NCBI GenBank assembly: GCA_016743995.1
Contig: JADGFG010000017.1
Coordinates: 1-32,000 of the forward strand
Direction of reading: 5' to 3'
Source of the DNA: Kangiellaceae bacterium
Lineage (GTDB): Bacteria > Pseudomonadota > Gammaproteobacteria > Enterobacterales > Kangiellaceae
DNA length: 32,000 nt
Shown here in pieces: positions 19,940 through 32,000 of the stretch. The position numbers and the translations under genes are program-made. The stretch's first letter is position 1; every line of letters starts with the position of its first letter. Under the pieces are notes generated by a model. That model was given only the letters and a program-made list of their open reading frames with translations, ran no database searches and was not told the origin of the DNA.

Positions 19940-20968
19940 TCAGGGAATCAGTAAATCAATTTTCTTTTTTCTGCCTTTGCGCCAGATAACAAGATGTAGA
20001 CGATCACCTGACTTAAGGCTCTTAATCGATTTCATCAACCTGTTCAGTGAACTTTTGCTATCAAAACGATTACCATCAATGCTCAGAATAATATCACCAC
20101 CAAGTATAAAGGGCTCATCCTCGATCATGGCGTGAATCGTTCCACCTTGTAAGCCAGCCTTAAATGCAAGCGAGCCAGAAGCCACCTTTTGTATCAGCGC
20201 TCCAGTATCCTGGGGTAGTTGAAATGCATCTGCCAACTCTGGTCCCATGGCAGATACCACCATCCCGGACCAGAAATGGCCACGACTTAATAAAAGCTCT
20301 TTTACCGTTTCACTAGTTACGGTAAAACCCAATCCTTCTGAGCCCCCGGAATGAGATTGAATATGCGACGCAATTCCAATAATTTCTCCAGCCATATTAA
20401 ATAGCGGACCACCCGAGTTTCCCGGATTAATTGCCGCATCAGTTTGAAAAAACTCTGCCATCGGTGCGGCGGGCCTTGAACCTACGGGATGTTTTCCGCT
20501 AATGTAACCAACAGTCAGAGTTTTAATCAAGCCTTGTGGTGCGCCTATCACAAAGACTTTCTCTCCAATCTGTACTTTGTTCGAATCTCCTAATTGAGCG
20601 GGCTTAACATTTTCGGGTAAAGCATCCACTTGAATCATCGCCAGATCGCCCCAGATAATTGATGATAAAACCTTCGCTTTTTTAAACTCACCGGTTTCAA
20701 ATTCCACCTGTAACGCATCTACGGTGTGAACAACATGAGAAGCGGTAATAATGATGCCATCATTGGAAATAATAACACCAGAGCCTAAACCATTTGGAGT
20801 GGTAACAACACGAGTAGTATTACCCATCACTTCATTTTCAAAGGTGTGTAAAGTAACCACACTTGGTAGCAATTTTTTATAAAGCGCAGGTAACGGGTTA
20901 TTTTCAAAAGCCTGGGTTAAAGAATGGTAAAATAGTCCGATAATCAGCAGGCCAATTTTTGTGTTCAT
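19940..20968 (-). CDS. Periplasmic S1C (HtrA/DegS-like) serine protease with a single C-terminal PDZ domain
   Basis: 342 aa. Signal peptide: MNTKIGLLIIGLFYHSLTQA. Catalytic triad context: ITASHVV (His), GDLAMIQV (Asp), GNSGGPLFN (Ser codon 20414-20416). The C-terminal PDZ-like region is ALIQKVASGSLAFKAGLQGG...GDIILSIDG. Confidence 0.88.
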   Translation of the reverse strand: MNTKIGLLIIGLFYHSLTQAFENNPLPALYKKLLPSVVTLHTFENEVMGNTTRVVTTPNGLGSGVIISNDGIIITASHVVHTVDALQVEFETGEFKKAKVLSSIIWGDLAMIQVDALPENVKPAQLGDSNKVQIGEKVFVIGAPQGLIKTLTVGYISGKHPVGSRPAAPMAEFFQTDAAINPGNSGGPLFNMAGEIIGIASHIQSHSGGSEGLGFTVTSETVKELLLSRGHFWSGMVVSAMGPELADAFQLPQDTGALIQKVASGSLAFKAGLQGGTIHAMIEDEPFILGGDIILSIDGNRFDSKSSLNRLMKSIKSLKSGDRLHLVIWRKGRKKKIDLLIP

Positions 20969-21025
20969 AGTTTTCTCTTGTTGTTTATTATTGTCTGTTC
21001 TTGTCGTTATAAATGATATCCGTTT

Positions 21026-21475
21026 TCAGGCTTTGTCTTTAGCCAGGATCTCTTTCTCATCGGTTAGTGCTGATACCGGCTTGTCGTAAAATATTGATAG
21101 AGAAATAATAATAAACATTGCCAGATGAACCGCATTAATGCCGTATTTTTGTGTGGTGATCGCATTTGACTCATACAAATTTACTATATGACTAATCACA
21201 TGATTTCCATTACAGCAACTCTCATTTTTTATTGCATCTATCTGATGATAAATGCTCCATAAAAACTGAGCCTGACTTTGCATCATTAAATTATTAATTG
21301 CCGCAAATCCACAATAGATAACAATGGCGACAATTTTCTCTTTTCTTGTCAAAGGCCGGTCTACGTAAATGATACCACCAATAAGTGCCAGATGTACGGT
21401 AATAAATAACGACCAGTGGGTATCCAGACGATTACTCAGCGATAATGCAAGATCCAGTAGTTCATAAGGTGTCAT
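21026..21475 (-). CDS. Hypothetical integral membrane protein (about 3 TM helices)
   Basis: 149-aa ORF with hydrophobic segments (LFITVHLALIGGIIYV, IVAIVIYCGFAAINNLMM, AVHLAMFIIISLSIF). I recognise no family. It starts 24 nt downstream of the preceding gene and ends 57 nt upstream of the protease gene. Confidence 0.55.
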   Translation of the reverse strand: MTPYELLDLALSLSNRLDTHWSLFITVHLALIGGIIYVDRPLTRKEKIVAIVIYCGFAAINNLMMQSQAQFLWSIYHQIDAIKNESCCNGNHVISHIVNLYESNAITTQKYGINAVHLAMFIIISLSIFYDKPVSALTDEKEILAKDKA

Positions 21476-24700: not shown

Positions 24701-27114
24701 GAAAAACGTTTCACTCTTTTTTCAATACTTTGCAAAATTCGGCTGCCAGCATCATCCAGAGATTGTGCTTTCCTTTGTCTTGCCTCAATTAAAGATTGTT
24801 TATGCTCTTCAAAAGTTTCAAATATTTCTTCTCTTTTATTAATAATATCGCTGATAAAATCATCATAATCACTGAACTCACCTTCTAACTCATCCAACTG
24901 AACTAAAAGCCTTGAAACTTGTTCGTCACATTTATCAGGCGTAGCAGACAATCCCAACGCATTATGAATACTCTGATTAAGCAACTTTAACCTGGCAGAA
25001 AACTGAGCCGTTGCTTCGGATTTTCCCATGTTCTTTTTTTGATGTTCCAGTTTTGCACGCTGCTGATTTAACCTGGCATATAACTCAGACACCTCATCAA
25101 CAATCCTGGTTTGCAATGTCGCATCTTCAACTTTTAACATGGTCATCACTTCAGAGATTAAATCCATTCCCTGTGACATACTGGACAATGCTTCCAGATA
25201 CTGTTTTAAATCCAGGTTGGTTTTACATTGACTACTTTCAGATTCAACACGCTCCAGCTCTTTGTAGTAACTTTTTAACGCTGATTCAGAGGCCAGAAAT
25301 TCAACAGTTTTTTGATTAAGTAGTTCTTCTTCCTTCTGTATTTCCTGATCAAGCGTTTCAATTTCCGCTATATCGATATATCGATATTCCTTAATCGTTA
25401 ATAAATGACCTCGATGTTTTCTTATTCGGCTTAATGCATCAACAAATTCCTGGGGAGTATGCCAGCTATCAGGCTCAATCAAACGAATTATTTCTCGCTG
25501 AGTTGCTTTTGATTCTGTTAAAGCTTTTGAAGACTGATTACGAATGCTCTCAACTTTTTCGTATTCATCGATTACTGATTCAGCGGTCTGTGCAATTTTT
25601 TTAATCAGCTTTGAAGTATCACTCAGCTCGGTTGAATCCAGCCAGAAATAGCTATCAAAAATTTTCTCGCAGGATTGACTCAGTTGATGATAATGTTTTG
25701 CAGACACATCGTTTGTAGAAATATTTTTTGATATATCATAGAGTTCAGAAATTCCCCTCACCAGATCCGCATTACCAATTTTTCCATAAAAACTTTGTGA
25801 AGCTGGCTGTGAGCTTGCATACAGATCAGAAAAATAAGGGGTTTGCCATATTTGTATGGGGTGCACTCGAGCCGGCTCTTCATCAGCATAAAACAAAATC
25901 ATACGTCCATCTTCATAGAAACCAAAGCCATGGCCAAAAAGTGGGTTCTGTAATGTTTTTTCAATAATGTTATACGGATAGAAAGCAACAACATTTGTTT
26001 CTGGTTGATAAAACAGGTACAAAACATCTTCGCCATTGGGGGAACGCATTGTTCGTTTATAAACAAGTCCCTCCAGCTCATCATCAAAAGATTTATACTC
26101 GCCACTCGTCAGATAGTAGCCACCCGGAAAAATAATACCATGGCCTTCTGGCAATTGAACACAGGCATCGCCAATGGCATCAATTCTTACAACAGTTTCC
26201 GTCATACGATTGAAAATGAGATAGCGGTATTTTTCTTCCTGATAGGGTTTAATCTTTAACAAAACCAATTGTTCTAAATCAGCATAATAAAACTCCGCAT
26301 CATCAATCGACTGATTACTTTCCTCAACAGATTCGGAATAGATCCCTTTACCAACATTGGTATTATTTTCAATTTTAATGGTGATATCGCCACGTAACGT
26401 ATCAACAAAAAGTGTATCCAGTATATTAATATGAGGGTTTCGACCATCGATAACATCGTCGCGCTGACATTGAGTCCATTCAAAATCATGACTGGCCGGT
26501 AAACGAATATCTCTTTCTCCACGATTATCGATATAATCTATTCGCTTACCATCTGAGGAAACCTCCCAACGAAAAACTCTGATATCCGTCAGCTTTCTTC
26601 CTGTTTGAAAAGATGCCAGTAATCGGCCGTCTTTTAAAACCAACTGAGAAAGTGAAGTATCCTTATAATAAGCATAGAGCTCCTGAAAGTCCGTATGAAA
26701 ACGTGAATCGGACAGAAACGAGTCTTCTAACGCAACCGAATGCAATTCATATTGGCCTTCGCTTTCTTTCAACTGATAGAGTGATAAGACATCTGTCAGT
26801 TTCGTTTCTTTTTTCAGACCAATGTAAACATTGTAACCAAACAGAACATAATCGCCGACAATCACCAGATCCTGAGCCTGACAGTTATTTTCTGTTCGCA
26901 GACGCATTCTACCGAGAACTTCCATCTCGGTATTACCAAACTCCTGTCGTCGCGCTGTATTTAATTCACTAGTTAACTCATTCAGCAAACTGCCCTGTTC
27001 AGATAAACGCTGGCAGATAATTTCATAAGCACCGCCTTCAGCGACTGCTTTTTCCACAATTGAATTTTTTTCTGTCTGTTCTGTCACGTTAAAGTCCCTG
27101 AAGAAGATCGACAC
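21787..27114 (-). CDS. Giant (about 1775 aa) single-AAA+ protein: beta-rich N-terminal region, long helical/coiled-coil middle, MoxR/dynein-like (AAA_5-type) ATPase module, helical C-terminal tail
   Basis: Uninterrupted 5.3-kb ORF. Walker A MISPPGYGKTT is encoded at 23188-23220 (P-loop 23188-23214). Walker B VMLYLDDIQH is at 22996-23025. This is followed by FCVVMAGNPYTETGEVFQIPDMLANRADVYNLGD, a MoxR/midasin-like NP...G...P..L.NR block. I found no second P-loop. Residues about 60-450 are rich in short beta-like segments with aromatic/Gly turns. Residues about 450-1290 are E/K/Q/L-rich heptad-like sequence. The start is uncertain: the GTG at 27114 lacks an SD, while the in-frame GTG at 27087 is preceded by AGGGA. 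Confidence 0.8.
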   Translation of the reverse strand: MSIFFRDFNVTEQTEKNSIVEKAVAEGGAYEIICQRLSEQGSLLNELTSELNTARRQEFGNTEMEVLGRMRLRTENNCQAQDLVIVGDYVLFGYNVYIGLKKETKLTDVLSLYQLKESEGQYELHSVALEDSFLSDSRFHTDFQELYAYYKDTSLSQLVLKDGRLLASFQTGRKLTDIRVFRWEVSSDGKRIDYIDNRGERDIRLPASHDFEWTQCQRDDVIDGRNPHINILDTLFVDTLRGDITIKIENNTNVGKGIYSESVEESNQSIDDAEFYYADLEQLVLLKIKPYQEEKYRYLIFNRMTETVVRIDAIGDACVQLPEGHGIIFPGGYYLTSGEYKSFDDELEGLVYKRTMRSPNGEDVLYLFYQPETNVVAFYPYNIIEKTLQNPLFGHGFGFYEDGRMILFYADEEPARVHPIQIWQTPYFSDLYASSQPASQSFYGKIGNADLVRGISELYDISKNISTNDVSAKHYHQLSQSCEKIFDSYFWLDSTELSDTSKLIKKIAQTAESVIDEYEKVESIRNQSSKALTESKATQREIIRLIEPDSWHTPQEFVDALSRIRKHRGHLLTIKEYRYIDIAEIETLDQEIQKEEELLNQKTVEFLASESALKSYYKELERVESESSQCKTNLDLKQYLEALSSMSQGMDLISEVMTMLKVEDATLQTRIVDEVSELYARLNQQRAKLEHQKKNMGKSEATAQFSARLKLLNQSIHNALGLSATPDKCDEQVSRLLVQLDELEGEFSDYDDFISDIINKREEIFETFEEHKQSLIEARQRKAQSLDDAGSRILQSIEKRVKRFSEQDELNTFFAADPLINKVREIIVHLKELDDSVKSEDLDARLKAIKEQSLRALRDKSDLYEDDGQVIKLGPRHKFSVNRQELDLTILPRDEALTIRLSGTDYTETVNDKRLLQYKDYWNMLLPSESTSIYRSEYLAYNIINAAQGNQDGLSWRQLIDAVADSRLLNRLVVDYAAPRYREGYEKGIHDHDAALILKKLVPVYELAGVFKFSPLARGFATVYWANRQQGNIQELWQLRAKTSAKMSEVFFDSSAKKLLADEIRQDMSEFVIENKMEIKEHVIVSASEYLSEELSQDIISFSTSKYARRLCEDFKVYLESKVVWRDYQRSLDDIKGQIGKRWSIAEKWIRAYINSQNKNEYISFVGEAIGILNSEQRISRTDREVDIQLKIEGLIGEHSRLKGQALIVQLDEFLRANQYHAREVVPAFENYLSVRQLFISEQRETLRISEFKAKPLASFVRNRLINEVYLSLIGDNLAKQIGTAGAKKRTDLMGLLLMISPPGYGKTTLMEYVADRLGLIFMKINCPVIGHSVTSVDPQQADNSASKQELEKLNLALEMGNNVMLYLDDIQHTNSEFLQKFISLCDGTRRIEGIWKGRTKTYDMRGKKFCVVMAGNPYTETGEVFQIPDMLANRADVYNLGDVLGGKEAIFDLSYLENSLTSNQVLAPLATRDLQDFYKFIEMSEGKTVATTEFSHQYSGAEIKEIVAILQKLKVIQHTVSSVNKQYIASSAQDDRYRTEPAFKLQGSYRNMNKMSEKVSAIMTDEELNRLVDDHYQGESQLLTNGAEANLLKLAEMRGCLSEKKQRRWQEIKKDFTRNKAMGGDEADTGRQIVGQLNDLVSTLGSWRDSRQLVADEKESVKSAVNDQKNSLPLIVEAIENLADKWGQQNNNLQNNEEPGELSKQLMVQIKEVFETTFYPLIRLMDGKLDLDLGTHQKIQDINEKLELISRQTKLVEPGRQKKSSHQPKQDPES

Positions 27115-27182
27115 AAGATAAGCGGCACAATATTATTAACACAATATAATCCACATAACTTAAAGGCTGAATTAAACGAACA

Positions 27183-27226
27183 GATCAGCAAAATAGTCTC
27201 TTAAAATTTATTCTATTTCACTGATC
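27183..27226 (-). other. Imperfect 14-bp-arm hairpin between the flotillin and giant ATPase genes (possible partial terminator / RNA processing or stability element)
   Basis: gatcagcaaaatag (27183-27196) pairs with ctatttcactgatc (27213-27226). That is 12 of 14 pairs with a central 2x2 mismatch and a 16-nt AT-rich loop. It lies 19 nt downstream of the flotillin stop. Only a weak T-tract follows on the minus strand. Confidence 0.4.
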
Positions 27227-27244
27227 CGCAAACGAATAAGTACT

Positions 27245-29290
27245 TTATGCTTCGTCTTTATCGGCGTTAGAAATTGTTTTAGGCGCAGATTTATCTCCAC
27301 CCAACAGTTTCTCCATCAGCGCCTGAACAACCGGACTCTTTTCAATAAAACCACTGACCGCGTTTCCTGCCCCCATGCCTTTCGCCAGTTTATCGAAATA
27401 ATCTCCTTGTCCAGTGACAATATCAACATTCGCACTCTTAAGTGCTGAGGCAAGGACTTCCGCCTGATCACCAGATATTTCTTTATTCGCTTCTATAGAA
27501 GCAAGCACTTCTTTCAGGTTATATTCAAGGTTCAGTTTAAATTCTTCAAAACTACGGGATTCTTTATCCATATTATTCATTGCTGCAAATTTGTCGACTA
27601 ACGCATCCGCTTCAGCTTTACCTTTTTCTCGAAGAACCTCCGCTTCATTCACGCCTTTTTCTTTAATCGCTGTCGCCTCAGCAATACCTTGTTCTTGTGT
27701 TACATGCGCTTTGCTAAGACCAATTTCTTTTTCTGCGACCGCTTCAGCTCTTGCCATTTCTTCATTACCGCGCGCTTCAGCCGTCAATTTTTCTTCTAAG
27801 ACTTTTGCTTCGGCCAATCCTTCTTTTTCCAGGGATACCGCTTTAGCTTCTTGTACTCTTGCCTCAGCAATGCCTTCTTTTTCAAACGCGTCGGCTTTTG
27901 CTTCCATCACTCGGGCTTGTGCAATACCTTCTGCCGCATCAGTTGCCTGTTGACCTTCTGCAATTTTCTTATCTGCTTCTGCTTTTTTAGTCGCCGCTTC
28001 AAGATCTGCCTGAGCGAGTACGTTTATTTCACGAGCCCTGAATTGCGCTTTTTGTTCATCAGCTTCTGCACGTTTAACCGTTTGCACCAGCTCTTCCTGA
28101 GCTAAAGCTTCGGCCCCTAGAACAACCACCTGCTTCTTTCGATCAGCTTCTGAAACTTCCTTAACTTCCTTAATTCTCTCTTCTTCTTCAGCAACTTTCT
28201 TTTCTACCGCAATACGCTCACTGATCGTTTGTGCAATAATCTTCTTTTCTTCTTCAAGTGCTTTGTCTTTATCAATGATCGAAAGCTCAACTTCTCTTTC
28301 TCTGTTCACTTCTTCCATTTCTTTTGCGCGAATCACCCTTTCTTTTTCAATAACGACAGCGCGTTCTCTGTTTTGCTCTGCAATTTCAATCTGGCGTAAT
28401 TTGACCTGATCTCTAATCTCAAGTTGTTCTTCGGTTTCAATTCTTGCCTGTTCATATTTCAGCCTTTCTTCTTCCTGTACTTTTTTTGTTTCAGCTTCTT
28501 CTCTTGCCCTGACCGTCTCAATTTCTCTTTTCTGCTTTGATTCTGCATCTATCTGCTGTCTTTCCAGCGATAACATTGACTCGCGAGTTTCCACATTTTT
28601 CTTAGTGATCGCCAGAGACTCATCTTTTTCAAGACGATTAGTTTCAATATTTTGCGTCGCAGTAATTTCGGTTATTTTTCGAATACCAACAGAATCCAGA
28701 ATGTTAGTCGGGTCAAGTTGTGCTTTCGGTGTTTGTTCCAGATAATCAATGGCGACATCTTCCAGAATATAGCCATTCAAATCGTCTCCAATCACTTCAA
28801 TAATTTTTTCCCTGAACTGAATTCTGTTTTCAAAAAGATCCAGAAACAACATGTTTTTACCCACCGTTTTTAGTGCTTCTGAAAATTTTGCGTTAAACAG
28901 TTCGTTAACAGCAATTTTGTCAGATGCGCGGTCGACACCAATTGACTTGGCCACCCGGAGTACGTCATCACGGGTTTCATTCACTCTTAAATAAAATGCA
29001 ACGGTAATATCTGCCCGAAGGTTATCTTCACAGATAAGCCCATCATTTCCGCGACGATCAATTTCCAGTGTAATCAGAGAGATTTTCATCACTTCCATTT
29101 TATGAATGACCGGTATTACCATGCCGCCGGTAAAATGAACTTTGGGTTTGGCTGACATGTCATTAACAATGAGCGCATATCCCTGAGGTACCTTTTTATA
29201 GAAAGCGCTAAACATAAACGCGATCCCCATAATAATTACCAGTATAATTCCGCCAGTTGTAATTATTGGCATTAAAATTCCGCTATCCAT
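27245..29290 (-). CDS. yqiK: Flotillin-family SPFH/Band-7 protein (YqiK-like)
   Basis: 681 aa. The N-terminal TM helix is PIITTGGIILVIIMGIAFMFSAF. An SPFH-like region follows (VPQGYALIVN...GGMVIPVIHK...LRADITVAFYLRV), then a very long E/A/K/R-rich coiled coil with periodic repeats. This is the architecture of E. coli YqiK and bacterial flotillins. GGAG lies 9 nt upstream of the ATG. Confidence 0.88.
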   Translation of the reverse strand: MDSGILMPIITTGGIILVIIMGIAFMFSAFYKKVPQGYALIVNDMSAKPKVHFTGGMVIPVIHKMEVMKISLITLEIDRRGNDGLICEDNLRADITVAFYLRVNETRDDVLRVAKSIGVDRASDKIAVNELFNAKFSEALKTVGKNMLFLDLFENRIQFREKIIEVIGDDLNGYILEDVAIDYLEQTPKAQLDPTNILDSVGIRKITEITATQNIETNRLEKDESLAITKKNVETRESMLSLERQQIDAESKQKREIETVRAREEAETKKVQEEERLKYEQARIETEEQLEIRDQVKLRQIEIAEQNRERAVVIEKERVIRAKEMEEVNREREVELSIIDKDKALEEEKKIIAQTISERIAVEKKVAEEEERIKEVKEVSEADRKKQVVVLGAEALAQEELVQTVKRAEADEQKAQFRAREINVLAQADLEAATKKAEADKKIAEGQQATDAAEGIAQARVMEAKADAFEKEGIAEARVQEAKAVSLEKEGLAEAKVLEEKLTAEARGNEEMARAEAVAEKEIGLSKAHVTQEQGIAEATAIKEKGVNEAEVLREKGKAEADALVDKFAAMNNMDKESRSFEEFKLNLEYNLKEVLASIEANKEISGDQAEVLASALKSANVDIVTGQGDYFDKLAKGMGAGNAVSGFIEKSPVVQALMEKLLGGDKSAPKTISNADKDEA

Positions 29291-29447
29291 TTATCTGTGC
29301 TCCGGTTTATTAAAATTAATTTTGATTGGTCTTTCTTATTTTGTTTGAAGTTTAGTAATACGTCTTAATGCCTGTTTTATTCCTGCCAGAAACAGATTTT
29401 CCTGATTGCCAGGCTACTCTGGTGGCCTGATTACTCTAATTGCCCGG

Positions 29448-30098
29448 TTATTCCAGTTGCTGATTAAATTCTTTTTCACTGACAATCTGATAAGTCCTAT
29501 CAACCTGATGTTCAATAATCACCGCAGTATCTCCTGCCTTATAGGTATCATTTTTACCATGAGTTCTAACTTTAACAATAAGACTGGCACCATGATGCAA
29601 ACATTCAGCCTCTCCAAATGCTTTATCGACTCGACTGCTTCTGATTTTGCAGGTTCGGCCTATCAGCGATTTTGATACTGGTTCACGGTTGATCGTCTTA
29701 AAAAGACCTTTCGTTGGTTTAATCATGACCGCAGTCAGCGGGATCGCAATTAGAAAACTCACAATCGCAATGCCCAGCTCAATCGCCAGTTGCAATAAAG
29801 AAATAAGATCAGGGAACTCAGGAAGAAGTAAGCTCATAAAATAGCAGATAAGCCAGCTATTCAACACTAACAGGCTAATAACGAGGGTAACGGGGACGCC
29901 AGTGAGGCCCAGTGTGACTAATAATCCAACAATGCCGCCCAGCTGACTGACATCGGTATCCACGTCAATATCCAGGTCAAACATATCAAAGTCAAATAGT
30001 CCCAGCATAACCATAAACCAGTAACCCACCACAACAACCAGTGCGGTACTATAAATGGCAGTAGGAAAACTGCTAATATTCAGTAGAAAAGTATCCAT
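29448..30098 (-). CDS. yqiJ: YqiJ/NfeD-like inner-membrane protein (short NfeD form: TM helices plus C-terminal OB-fold-like domain, no protease domain)
   Basis: The track ORF starts at a TTG (30107). I prefer the ATG at 30098 (MDTFLLN...). The protein has multiple TM helices and an acidic loop (DFDMFDLDIDVDTD). Its C-terminus LIGRTCKIRSS.VDKAFGEAECLHHGASLIVKVRT....YKAGDTAVIIEH resembles the NfeD OB-fold. It sits immediately upstream of the flotillin gene, as in E. coli yqiJK. Confidence 0.7.
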   Translation of the reverse strand: MDTFLLNISSFPTAIYSTALVVVVGYWFMVMLGLFDFDMFDLDIDVDTDVSQLGGIVGLLVTLGLTGVPVTLVISLLVLNSWLICYFMSLLLPEFPDLISLLQLAIELGIAIVSFLIAIPLTAVMIKPTKGLFKTINREPVSKSLIGRTCKIRSSRVDKAFGEAECLHHGASLIVKVRTHGKNDTYKAGDTAVIIEHQVDRTYQIVSEKEFNQQLE

Positions 30099-30132
30099 TA
30101 TAAACAAGCCCTGTTATCTATTTTTCATTATT

Positions 30133-30693
30133 TTATTTCTTTGTTTTTCGTTGTCTTTTTCGCACAAGCAATCTGGCCGTAACGATACCAGAAGCAAAGC
30201 CAAAGATATGACCTTCAAAGCTTACCCAGGAACGAAAGTCCAGTAAACTGAAAGCTAATCCACCATAAAGAAAAACCGTCACCAGTGCCAGAATAATGTT
30301 CTTAATATTCCGGTTAAAATAAGCCCAGCCCAACAAAAAACCAAAATACCCCATGACAAGTCCAGAGGCACCCACATGAAAAGCGCTTCTGGCAAATATC
30401 CAGACCATTATTCCGGTCAACAACATAATGGCAAGCGTAGCTTCTTTGCCTTTATTGGTAGCACACACCAGAAAACCCAATACAATCAGAGGGATAGTGT
30501 TTGCAATCAAATGATAAAGACCACCATGCAAAAAATGCATCGTCACAACGCCGTAAAGATGACCAAGGTCTCTGGGTAATAAACCATATTGGTTGAGATT
30601 ATGGTTAAGCGCAATATTAATCAATTCTATTAACCAGATTAATACAACAAAAGCCAACAACAGCTTAAAGTCTTTAATGGATTGACTGTTCAA
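30133..30693 (-). CDS. Rhomboid-family intramembrane serine protease
   Basis: 186 aa with about 6 TM helices. It carries the TM2 HxxxN motif (YHLIAN), the catalytic GxSG (HVGASGLVMGY; Ser codon 30364-30366) and the TM6 His (EGHIFGFASG). It has a TTG start preceded by AAGGA, overlapping the upstream gene stop by 4 nt (TTGA). Confidence 0.85.
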   Translation of the reverse strand: MNSQSIKDFKLLLAFVVLIWLIELINIALNHNLNQYGLLPRDLGHLYGVVTMHFLHGGLYHLIANTIPLIVLGFLVCATNKGKEATLAIMLLTGIMVWIFARSAFHVGASGLVMGYFGFLLGWAYFNRNIKNIILALVTVFLYGGLAFSLLDFRSWVSFEGHIFGFASGIVTARLLVRKRQRKTKK

Positions 30694-31022
30694 ATTGAGT
30701 CCTTTTTCATTACCAGATTAATTATCTCTTTAGCGGCCCTCTCTTTTATCGCGAGTTTATCATTCCTGTCAAGCCCATATTGCTGGGCCAGAATAATATA
30801 ATCGTCGGCAGATAGCGAAATCGTTAACCTGGGTCTGATTGGTTTTTTACTCGGCAACCCCAGAATCTGGCGCATTTGATCAGAAGGCGACAAATCATTA
30901 TTAATCGCCAACAGTTTTAATTGTTTTTGAGCCTCAGTAGAAATATCAAAAGCAACCTGAGTTGCCTTGATAGCTTTTTTTTCTTCACTCCACAACTCTG
31001 GCTTTTTTTTGTCTGTGCCCAT
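30690..31022 (-). CDS. Small soluble protein of unknown function; possible tandem ribbon-helix-helix (RHH) DNA-binding protein
   Basis: 110-aa ORF. Its start overlaps the yjfJ-like stop by 1 nt (TAATG) and its stop overlaps the rhomboid start. Two segments show a strand-helix-helix pattern: TQVAFDISTEAQKQLKLLAINNDLSPSDQMRQILGL and PRLTISLSADDYIILAQQYGLDRNDKLAIKERAAKEII. The fold assignment is inference only. Confidence 0.6.
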   Translation of the reverse strand: MGTDKKKPELWSEEKKAIKATQVAFDISTEAQKQLKLLAINNDLSPSDQMRQILGLPSKKPIRPRLTISLSADDYIILAQQYGLDRNDKLAIKERAAKEIINLVMKKDSI

Positions 31023-31717
31023 TATTGATAAGTGCTATTTTTTAATCGCTGCAATACATCTGCAGCAGTATGCTTTTCTTTAATAATTCCAGCTGTTTTC
31101 AGCTTTTCGTCAAGCGAATCGTCTTGCATTTCTTTTTGCAACTGAACGCCCGCATCAAACTTGTCCTGCTCTTTTTGTTGCTTTTGCTTTATCCGTTCTA
31201 ATGACTCTCTTGCGGTACCAATAGATGACTGATTCATTGTTACCGATTGCGTCACTGACTGCGTAGCTTGCTGAACCGATTCTCTGGTTTTCACCATAAG
31301 TAGCTCTCTCTCATGCTCGGCAATGGTCTTGTCTGCACGTTTTATTTCACCTTTCAACAAAGTAATCTGTTGTTCATAAGTGAGCGCTTCCTGCTTCAGC
31401 TCATTATTTTCTATCTCCAGTTTAGCCACCTTATCAGCAATTTCCAGCGCCAGCGCCTCATCTTTCTTCTCCAGTGCTTTTAGCGCATAAGATTCGTTCT
31501 CACTGATATCTTCTTTCAGCTGGTTAAGCTTTCTGTCTACCGCCATTTTTCTGGCAACTATTTCAGTTAACCCTTCTTTTGCTTCAGCAACACCATTTTT
31601 TGAATCTCTGATTTCCTGCTCAAAAATGCGCATTGACTGGGTATCAACTACCGCTTCACCCAGCTCTCTGGCACCACCACGAATCGCGGTTAATAATTTT
31701 TCAACAATGTTAGTCAT
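31022..31717 (-). CDS. yjfJ: PspA/IM30-family protein of the YjfJ subgroup
   Basis: 231 aa, all-helical coiled coil. It is collinear with remembered E. coli YjfJ: MRIFEQEIRDSK vs MLEQHIRDAK; ARESLERIKQKQQKEQDKFDAGVQLQK...LDEKLKTAGI...AADVLQRL vs AAESLKRLQTRQAERQARLDAAAQLEK...LDEKLAEAGI...AQDVLARL. GAGGA lies 8 nt upstream of the ATG. Confidence 0.88.
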   Translation of the reverse strand: MTNIVEKLLTAIRGGARELGEAVVDTQSMRIFEQEIRDSKNGVAEAKEGLTEIVARKMAVDRKLNQLKEDISENESYALKALEKKDEALALEIADKVAKLEIENNELKQEALTYEQQITLLKGEIKRADKTIAEHERELLMVKTRESVQQATQSVTQSVTMNQSSIGTARESLERIKQKQQKEQDKFDAGVQLQKEMQDDSLDEKLKTAGIIKEKHTAADVLQRLKNSTYQ

Positions 31718-31728
31718 AATATAATCCT

Positions 31729-32000
31729 CTATTTAATAAATTCTTCAAGCGCCTGTAAAGTTTCAATTGAGTTGGTTGCCAACGCAATTAACTCCTGAGT
31801 AATGCTTTCAAATTTTGAACCACAACTTAATGCGCCAAAAATAACATAATGCTCATCAACCAGTGCAAAAGAGCTAAGTGGCATCGGCACATTAAGCTCT
31901 AGCAGGTACCGATTAAGTTCTGCTTCTTTTTCAGTCACTATTTCCTGTTGAGTGAAAAGATAAGAAATACATAAAATCTGCGTTGAAGTGACAGTCACAA
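31729..32000 (-). CDS. yjfI: YjfI-like DUF2170 protein (CesT/Tir-chaperone-like fold proposed for this family); N-terminus lies beyond the window edge
   Basis: The C-terminal 89 aa are visible: NRYLLELNVPMPLSSFALVDEHYVIFGALSCGSKFESITQELIALATNSIETLQALEEF. This aligns with remembered E. coli YjfI: NTFLLRNQKIMPLSSVGISSV..EEYYIVFGALSLKSSLEDILLEITSLVDNALDLAEITEEY. It ends 11 nt upstream of yjfJ. The GTG at 31998 in the track is probably internal. Confidence 0.75.
   Translation of the reverse strand, partial: VTVTSTQILCISYLFTQQEIVTEKEAELNRYLLELNVPMPLSSFALVDEHYVIFGALSCGSKFESITQELIALATNSIETLQALEEFIK

Follow-up and report, generated by a model that had tools for sequence, protein, structure and literature searches.

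Ravi et al. 2024 (PMC11237479) described three classes of operon in which a CesT/Tir-type gene accompanies a PspA gene, and mentioned a ribbon-helix-helix (RHH) factor for group 2 only. In Pseudomonas aeruginosa, the bac cluster (PA3732-PA3729, or PA14_16140-16180) encodes the DUF2170 protein BacA, the PspA-like protein BacB, a short NfeD and the flotillin PaFlo3 (PMC10948618, PMC13086221). Here we analysed a 32,000-nucleotide stretch of DNA from a Kangiellaceae bacterium (contig JADGFG010000017.1, positions 1 to 32,000), referred to below as the window. Scans for open reading frames (ORFs) and Pfam domains show that its minus strand carries, between 19.9 and 32 kb, a run of co-directional genes that begins with DUF2170/YjfI and extends through an HtrA-type protease. 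The subject of this report is a gene for a rhomboid intramembrane serine protease within that run, located between a PspA gene of the yjfJ type and a flotillin gene. To our knowledge, the CesT/Tir-PspA operon family has so far been described by comparative genomics only, and we know of natural substrates and roles for only a handful of bacterial rhomboids.

The locus resembles group 1 of Ravi et al. in that a DUF2170 protein, PspA, an NfeD-fold transmembrane (TM) protein, a flotillin with TM, SPFH and coiled-coil parts, and a DUF3686 AAA+ ATPase are encoded in the same order and the same direction. It differs from group 1 by the RHH-like and rhomboid genes that are added between PspA and the gene for the NfeD-fold protein, which we call YqiJ-like; the word 'rhomboid' is absent from the text of PMC11237479 and from one supplementary file. 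The likeness to the bac cluster extends to the DUF2170 protein of the window, which matches the NCBIfam model for BacA weakly, whereas no rhomboid appears in the main text of PMC10948618 or PMC13086221. What the present locus adds to this known operon family is a rhomboid, together with the RHH/operator pair.

We propose, with a probability of roughly 0.6, that the product of this gene is an active rhomboid, an optional component of YjfI-YjfJ/PspA operons that is restricted to certain lineages and probably acts on membrane proteins once the PspA programme has been switched on. Two modules seem to have been fused in the operon, and the rhomboid is exactly where they meet. What looks like a PspA module consists of YjfI (DUF2170), YjfJ (PspA), a 110-amino-acid (aa) RHH-like protein and the rhomboid; what looks like a flotillin module consists of the YqiJ-like NfeD-fold protein, the flotillin, the DUF3686 AAA+ ATPase and a PHA_gran_rgn protein.

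Judging from its sequence, the 186-aa protein is very probably an active, minimal rhomboid serine protease, presumably of the six-helix type. Its match to PF01694 (MEROPS S54) extends over profile positions 2-142 of 143 and, at 66.7 bits (E 3.3e-18), exceeds the cut-off of 22.6. An earlier note on this DNA had described the catalytic features as intact, and all of them are present: the GASG motif at residues 108-111, which contains Ser110 and corresponds to TM4; the HxxxN motif of TM2, here HLIAN, with H61 and N65; and the TM6 histidine, H162, within GHIFG. H61, N65 and S110 are invariant in 81 of 81 aligned homologues and H162 in 80, the lone exception being cut by a contig end, and the rhomboid therefore looks like an active protease rather than a pseudoprotease. 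Upstream of its TTG the frame is open for only 8 codons and offers no earlier start, and the TTG agrees with the N-termini of the homologues. A simple hydropathy scan detected four strong segments, the glycine-rich catalytic helices being below its threshold. Profile and single-sequence searches found no sequence relative of the rhomboid among solved structures even at E<=10, which precluded a residue-by-residue alignment with GlpG. Rhombosortase identity (TIGR03902) was considered and rejected, the score being 28.4 bits against an equivalog cut-off of 84. The host genome contains three rhomboid genes, including this one.

The gene order and the overlapping codons listed in the earlier note were confirmed when the sequence was read again. 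The TAA stop of PspA and the ATG of the 110-aa gene share base 31022 (TAATG), and the TGA stop of the 110-aa gene overlaps the rhomboid TTG at 30690-30693 (TTGA), with AAGGA 6 nt before the TTG. The intergenic gaps from PspA through the 110-aa gene and the rhomboid to the YqiJ-like gene are thus -1, -4 and 34 nt. The last of these depends on the start of the YqiJ-like gene: its longest ORF opens at TTG 30107 (219 aa), its homologues all begin MD.F, corresponding to ATG 30098, and the protein is therefore probably 216 aa long, beginning 34 nt from the rhomboid stop. Such overlaps are frequent among operon genes in general. The overlap of PspA and the 110-aa gene is not conserved, the gaps in relatives being 17-121 nt and only locus L038 showing an overlap, of 8 nt; the 110-aa gene and the rhomboid are closely joined throughout, at -4 to +15 nt in 13 loci. 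A scan of positions 27000-32000 detected no terminator between genes, and its promoter- and terminator-like sites were no commoner than in shuffled sequences.

The recurrence of this arrangement was surveyed in the best 80 rhomboid homologues from a scan of species-representative genomes. The full order DUF2170-PspA-(110 aa)-rhomboid-YqiJ-like-flotillin-DUF3686-PHA_gran_rgn is present in Aliikangiella marina and in two metagenome contigs (L004-L006), with DUF2170 homologues of 135 aa preceding PspA in L005 and L006. The same arrangement is found in 14 of the best 80, which come from Aliikangiella, Pleionea, Kangiellaceae metagenome-assembled genomes (MAGs) and one other gammaproteobacterial MAG; the loci with the full arrangement are L004-L006, L038/L070, L052-L063 and L066. 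The adjacency of the rhomboid to the flotillin module is hence not unique to the host genome, as it recurs in 14 species-representative genomes and in metagenome contigs. In one of these loci, from Pleionea sp. CnH1-48 (L066:7849-10555), the operator pair described below is followed by a divergent 214-aa PspA-like protein (PF04012 E 4e-4, below the cut-off), an Acyl_transf_3 membrane acyltransferase, and then the rhomboid, YqiJ-like, flotillin and ATPase genes.

Gene neighbourhoods were also compared in an order sample of 151 genomes, 19 of which have DUF3686, and in a class sample of 400 genomes. Seen from the flotillin side, the rhomboid is a rare guest. Flotillin precedes the DUF3686 ATPase in 19 of 19 order-sample clusters. 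The YqiJ-like gene is immediately upstream of flotillin in the window; of the 17 other full-length DUF3686 clusters, 16 have it there too, and in the remaining one, L050, it was not detected. Yet there is no rhomboid within 10 kb of 17 of the 19 flotillin-DUF3686 clusters, the two exceptions being the host genome and one other (G004). In a Kangiella genome of the same family, DUF2170, PspA and the 110-aa gene are followed after 1 nt by the YqiJ-like gene; the rhomboid is absent and the operon is otherwise the same.

Nine further rhomboid homologues among the best 80 are located within 10 kb of a DUF2170-PspA pair with neither flotillin nor ATPase nearby. In Paraglaciecola the rhomboid is the last gene of a classical yjfIJKLMC operon (yjfI-yjfJ-K+ channel-DUF2491-DUF350-DUF1190-GSP_synth). 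A locus from uncultured Gammaproteobacteria (L079) has the order DUF2170-PspA-RHH-AdoMet_dc-DUF4178-channel-DUF350-...-Spermine_synth-rhomboid, and two five-gene operons (L080 and L130) consist of DUF2170-PspA-DUF4178-RHH-rhomboid. Rhomboid operons without flotillin come from at least three further lineages and belong to two other operon classes, and the three rhomboid-bearing architectures correspond one for one to the classes of Ravi et al. 2024. In the rhomboid tree, PspA-linked entries occupy at least four places. The rhomboids of Paraglaciecola and L079 are sisters there (support 99), whereas the PspAs of the same two loci fall on opposite sides of a 99-supported split in the PspA tree; one rhomboid lineage has therefore been attached to two PspA operon classes. 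A rhomboid is present within 5.5 kb of DUF2170 in 4 order-sample genomes from three families. DUF2170 occurs in 19 of the 21 order-sample genomes that have the rhomboid subfamily, against 44 of the 130 that lack it, a co-occurrence that is only suggestive of a link, as related genomes are not independent. Since flotillin clusters are mostly without a rhomboid and flotillin-less PspA operons carry one, the partner that these loci share is the PspA dyad. The rhomboid is a lineage-restricted accessory that is core to neither module; what it is found with again and again, whatever the operon class, is the YjfI-YjfJ dyad.

The PspA dyad is usually preceded by a conserved pair of 13-bp operators. 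In the host genome, the palindrome GACATAWTATGTC is present in two exact copies 30 bp apart directly upstream of DUF2170, at contig positions 32156-32168 and 32186-32198, which are outside the window and beside a TTGACA hexamer. No other exact copy was found in the 4.68-Mb genome, and copies with one mismatch are no commoner than those of a control pattern. Exact copies are present in 31 other fetched loci, mostly paired directly upstream of the first gene of the operon, and these loci include flotillin-less rhomboid operons as well as the Kangiella operon without a rhomboid. The pair is probably the operator of the operon and probably bound by the RHH protein: palindrome and 110-aa gene occur together in 22 loci and are both missing from 27, while 7 loci have the operator only and 3 the gene only. 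Two loci have a third exact copy some 4 kb before the operon (L080:3930-3942 and L137:5957-5969), which hints at a further regulated gene.

No Pfam match was found for the 110-aa protein. In its AF2 model there are two units, each made up of an extended segment and, after it, a pair of helices. A Foldseek search with this model returned nothing significant, the weak matches being mostly RHH proteins, and the Atlas leads, which are language-model neighbours and likewise not significant, are all RHH families. Taken together, the weak structural matches, the Atlas leads and the correlation with the operator suggest that this is probably a ribbon-helix-helix protein by which the operon is repressed. 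The rhomboid would then share the control of PspA. In three loci (L052, L053 and L059, from Aliikangiella marina, A. coralliicola and a Kangiellaceae MAG) the operator and the rhomboid are kept without a 110-aa gene between PspA and the rhomboid, and the repressor, if there is one, would have to be encoded elsewhere in these genomes.

We propose that the rhomboid would be made together with PspA from a promoter carrying the two GACATAWTATGTC operators, to which the RHH protein would probably be bound. When the PspA membrane-stress programme is switched on, the rhomboid would appear in the membrane, where it would cleave one or more single-pass or destabilised membrane proteins. By such cleavage it could clear damaged or orphan proteins, or process a membrane protein that partners the PspA/flotillin assembly. 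A bolder version of this proposal, which we offer tentatively and regard as possible more than probable, is that the short rhomboid subfamily is a dedicated and repeatedly recruited effector of YjfI-YjfJ (PspA/ESCRT-III-like) systems of membrane repair, which would be induced together with PspA by release of the RHH protein and would cleave a membrane protein that controls or accompanies the PspA/flotillin assembly where the membrane is damaged. If this were true, a bacterial rhomboid would gain a defined physiological pathway, together with a short list of conditions in which to hunt for its substrates.

The earlier note had nominated three proteins of the cluster as substrates: the flotillin, through its N-terminal membrane segment, the YqiJ-like protein and a 149-aa membrane protein encoded further downstream. 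A hydropathy scan identified the flotillin as the only single-pass protein of the cluster, the other two being polytopic, and by the positive-inside rule we read its orientation as N-out/C-in. Candidate substrates of type I and type III were the subject of a screen by Liu et al. (PMC7232013). The flotillin segment is accordingly the only cis-encoded single-pass candidate in the host genome, and to this extent the nomination stands. It is weakened by the rarity of the rhomboid in flotillin clusters and by the N-termini of the flotillin and of the YqiJ-like protein, in which no extension or motif specific to rhomboid-bearing clusters was found when one was sought by analogy with Providencia TatA. 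The 149-aa protein, polytopic and with no homologue in related clusters, is not favoured. Complex predictions of the rhomboid with flotillin residues 1-230 and with the YqiJ-like protein both scored 0.00, which is neither support nor counter-evidence. In the five-gene operons L080 and L130 the rhomboid is the only membrane protein encoded. As the neighbouring proteins, their N-termini and the complex predictions point nowhere, no substrate can be named. Furthermore, the subfamily is also present in operons without the flotillin module, and a subfamily-wide substrate therefore cannot be a protein of that module.

Several observations weigh against an optional rhomboid of the PspA operons. The link is rare when seen from the PspA side, as rhomboid-linked dyads were found in 0 of 17 other DUF2170 genomes of the class sample and in 4 of 63 of the order sample; most YjfI-YjfJ systems therefore work without a rhomboid. 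For 57 of the best 80 homologues there is no PspA within the fetched flanks, 29 of these being on contigs too short to judge. The deep nodes of the rhomboid tree are weak, and independent recruitments may be fewer than the four places suggest. The sequence was found only in DNA runs of marine metagenomes and in no RNA run, and no substrate evidence of any kind was obtained. Finally, the flotillin module of Aliikangiella maris begins with the rhomboid and has no PspA close by, which fits a link to flotillin equally well.

The earlier note had suggested that the rhomboid may supply in trans the kind of proteolysis that long NfeD proteins perform on their SPFH partners; in such a model it would cleave the flotillin membrane segment (or the YqiJ-like or 149-aa protein) to regulate the scaffold. 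The 14 species representatives in which the rhomboid immediately precedes the NfeD-fold gene and the flotillin speak for it, as do the rhomboid that stays with the flotillin module in A. maris, the single-pass flotillin read in the type I/III orientation screened by Liu et al. (PMC7232013), and the precedent of the long NfeD PH1510, which cleaves its stomatin partner (PMC3795559, PMC13086221). Such a substitute protease would nevertheless be missing from 17 of the 19 clusters of YqiJ-like protein, flotillin and DUF3686, including the otherwise identical Kangiella operon, and the same rhomboid subfamily is found in operons that have neither flotillin nor NfeD. The flotillin and YqiJ-like N-termini are alike with or without a rhomboid, two of the three proposed targets are polytopic and one of them, the 149-aa protein, is unconserved in related clusters, and the complex predictions are uninformative. 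The idea is thus poorly supported by the comparison of loci, and we consider it quite improbable. In a truer analogy to PARL and SLP2, the flotillin/NfeD-fold cage would remain uncleaved and corral the rhomboid in a microdomain, thereby controlling which substrates it meets. The SPY complex (SLP2-PARL-YME1L), an SPFH scaffold that holds a rhomboid (PMC10818064), provides the model, and in this clade the rhomboid is in the same operon as the flotillin module and presumably co-transcribed with it. This explanation accounts neither for the rhomboid in flotillin-less PspA operons nor for its absence from most flotillin clusters, the complex predictions (0.00) gave no predicted interface, and we regard such an arrangement as very unlikely.

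A simpler explanation would be that a general housekeeping rhomboid was captured as a passenger, with no functional tie to PspA or to flotillin. Most homologues of the subfamily are indeed found in unrelated contexts, the genome has two other rhomboids, and the gene is positioned at operon ends or at the module junction, where insertions are tolerated. Chance capture would have to explain why a gene pair present in <5% of sampled Gammaproteobacteria is linked to the rhomboid repeatedly, in three operon classes and in several rhomboid lineages, why the joins to the gene before it are without exception very tight (-4 to +15 nt), and why the rhomboid subfamily and DUF2170 co-occur in genomes; we therefore think a passenger unlikely. 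The reading that we retain is that of an optional protease of the YjfI-YjfJ/PspA operons.

Of the neighbouring genes, the one between rhomboid and flotillin required a structural comparison. The earlier note had called its product a short NfeD of the YqiJ form, which agrees with fold and context and has no counterpart in family profiles, as hmmscan and a six-frame search of the genome found no NfeD (PF01957) or YqiJ_OB (PF07290) match to the 219-aa protein at E<=10, and its scans against Pfam and NCBIfam likewise gave no match. In its AF2 model, built on 27 homologues with a pLDDT of 88, the N-terminal part consists of membrane helices and a five-stranded C-terminal OB domain takes up residues 152-210. 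The best PDB matches of this domain in Foldseek are the soluble domains of NfeD proteins, namely 3CP0 (E 1.5e-5, TM 0.88, rmsd 1.7) and Bacillus subtilis YuaF 2K14 (E 6e-4), and the nearest Atlas clusters, taken as a lead only, are labelled YqiJ_N, YqiJ_OB and NfeD_TM. On the predicted fold and the gene context, the assignment as a short NfeD of the YqiJ/YuaF kind holds.

The flotillin has one TM segment at residues 9-27, an SPFH domain and a long coiled coil rich in E, A and K. Residues 1-250 match Band_7 with 40.2 bits against a cut-off of 23.6 (4.9e-10), whereas the full-length protein has no Pfam or NCBIfam match, which we attribute to the coiled coil hiding Band_7 in the full-length scan; automatic annotation could miss flotillins with coiled coils of this length. 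Its identity to the flotillins of most related clusters is 46-85%, and 34% in L050. The PspA of the window is 51-68% identical to the PspAs of related Kangiellaceae and Pleioneaceae clusters and belongs to the RHH-associated clade of the PspA tree, differing in this from the PspAs of the rhomboid-less flotillin-type operons, with the exception of Kangiella (L049). In the Kangiellaceae/Pleioneaceae clusters the PHA_gran_rgn gene is the conserved last gene (L004-L006 and most of L052-L062). None of the related clusters examined encodes a homologue of the 149-aa protein or of HtrA, and both are probably outside the conserved system. The host genome has five PspA-family genes in total and, on another contig, a separate NfeD domain gene (498-aa open frame). 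A second DUF2170-PspA pair (contig C92, 8770-9865) is without operator, RHH gene, rhomboid and flotillin. The coordinates of all features are collected in Table 1.

Table 1. Genes and sites of the rhomboid-bearing operon and its flanks, in window positions.
Feature	Position	Strand	Evidence or remark
yjfI-like DUF2170 gene (CesT/Tir-like), 3' two thirds	31729..32000	-	PF09938 2.4e-22; extends to about contig position 32139, beyond the window
yjfJ-type PspA/IM30 gene, 231 aa	31022..31717	-	PF04012 (PspA_IM30) 3.2e-32
110-aa protein, probable two-unit ribbon-helix-helix repressor (predicted)	30690..31022	-	no Pfam match; in 14 other loci
Rhomboid intramembrane serine protease gene, 186 aa, TTG start	30133..30693	-	PF01694 66.7 bits
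Codon of catalytic Ser110, TCT (GASG)	30364..30366	-	read from the sequence
YqiJ/YuaF-like membrane protein with predicted C-terminal NfeD-type OB domain	29448..30098 (longest ORF to 30107)	-	AF2 and Foldseek
Flotillin-type SPFH protein, 681 aa	27245..29290	-	Band_7 4.9e-10 on residues 1-250
DUF3686 / AAA+ ATPase, 1775 aa	21787..27114	-	PF12458 1.6e-192, DUF7902, AAA_5
PHA_gran_rgn-family gene, 92 aa	21500..21778	-	PF09650 5.9e-23
149-aa membrane protein and HtrA/PDZ protease, downstream of the cluster	19940-21475	-	no homologue in related clusters

These results describe a compact, apparently active rhomboid that is tied by conserved gene order to PspA operons of three architectures, and apparently to one conserved operator. 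They narrow the search for its role to conditions that induce yjfIJ and to single-pass membrane proteins that vary in abundance with the rhomboid, for which culturable hosts exist in Aliikangiella and Paraglaciecola. They also correct an attractive but weak idea, that of the rhomboid as a stand-in for the NfeD protease. Literature searches returned no paper that joins a rhomboid to PspA, flotillin and AAA+ or to NfeD, stomatin and operon; for rhomboid together with 'phage shock protein', the top match did not contain 'PspA' and the other titles were unrelated.

Among characterised rhomboids, Providencia AarA functions in the maturation of TatA. GlpG and Rhom7 of E. coli and Shigella perform quality control of orphan respiratory subunits (PMC7232013), and B. 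subtilis YqgP works with FtsH (PMC7231995). The protein of the window shares with them the Pfam family, the Ser-His dyad in GxSG and TM6, and HxxxN; it differs in being only 186 aa long with no extra domains, and a PspA/flotillin context is described for none of them. The SPY complex resembles this locus in placing a rhomboid and an SPFH-family protein in one functional group. The SPFH protein is there a scaffold and not a substrate, and the link is physical, whereas here it is operonic and known from genes, and the rhomboid also occurs with no SPFH gene nearby. Short NfeD/flotillin pairs are normally without a protease partner (PMC2636767). The long NfeD proteins of the PH1510/YbbJ type resemble the present case in that a membrane protease is encoded beside NfeD-OB and SPFH proteins; their protease is an N-terminal ClpP-like domain of another class and fold, and their partner is of the stomatin type (SPFH1) and not of the flotillin type (SPFH2) that follows the rhomboid in this operon.

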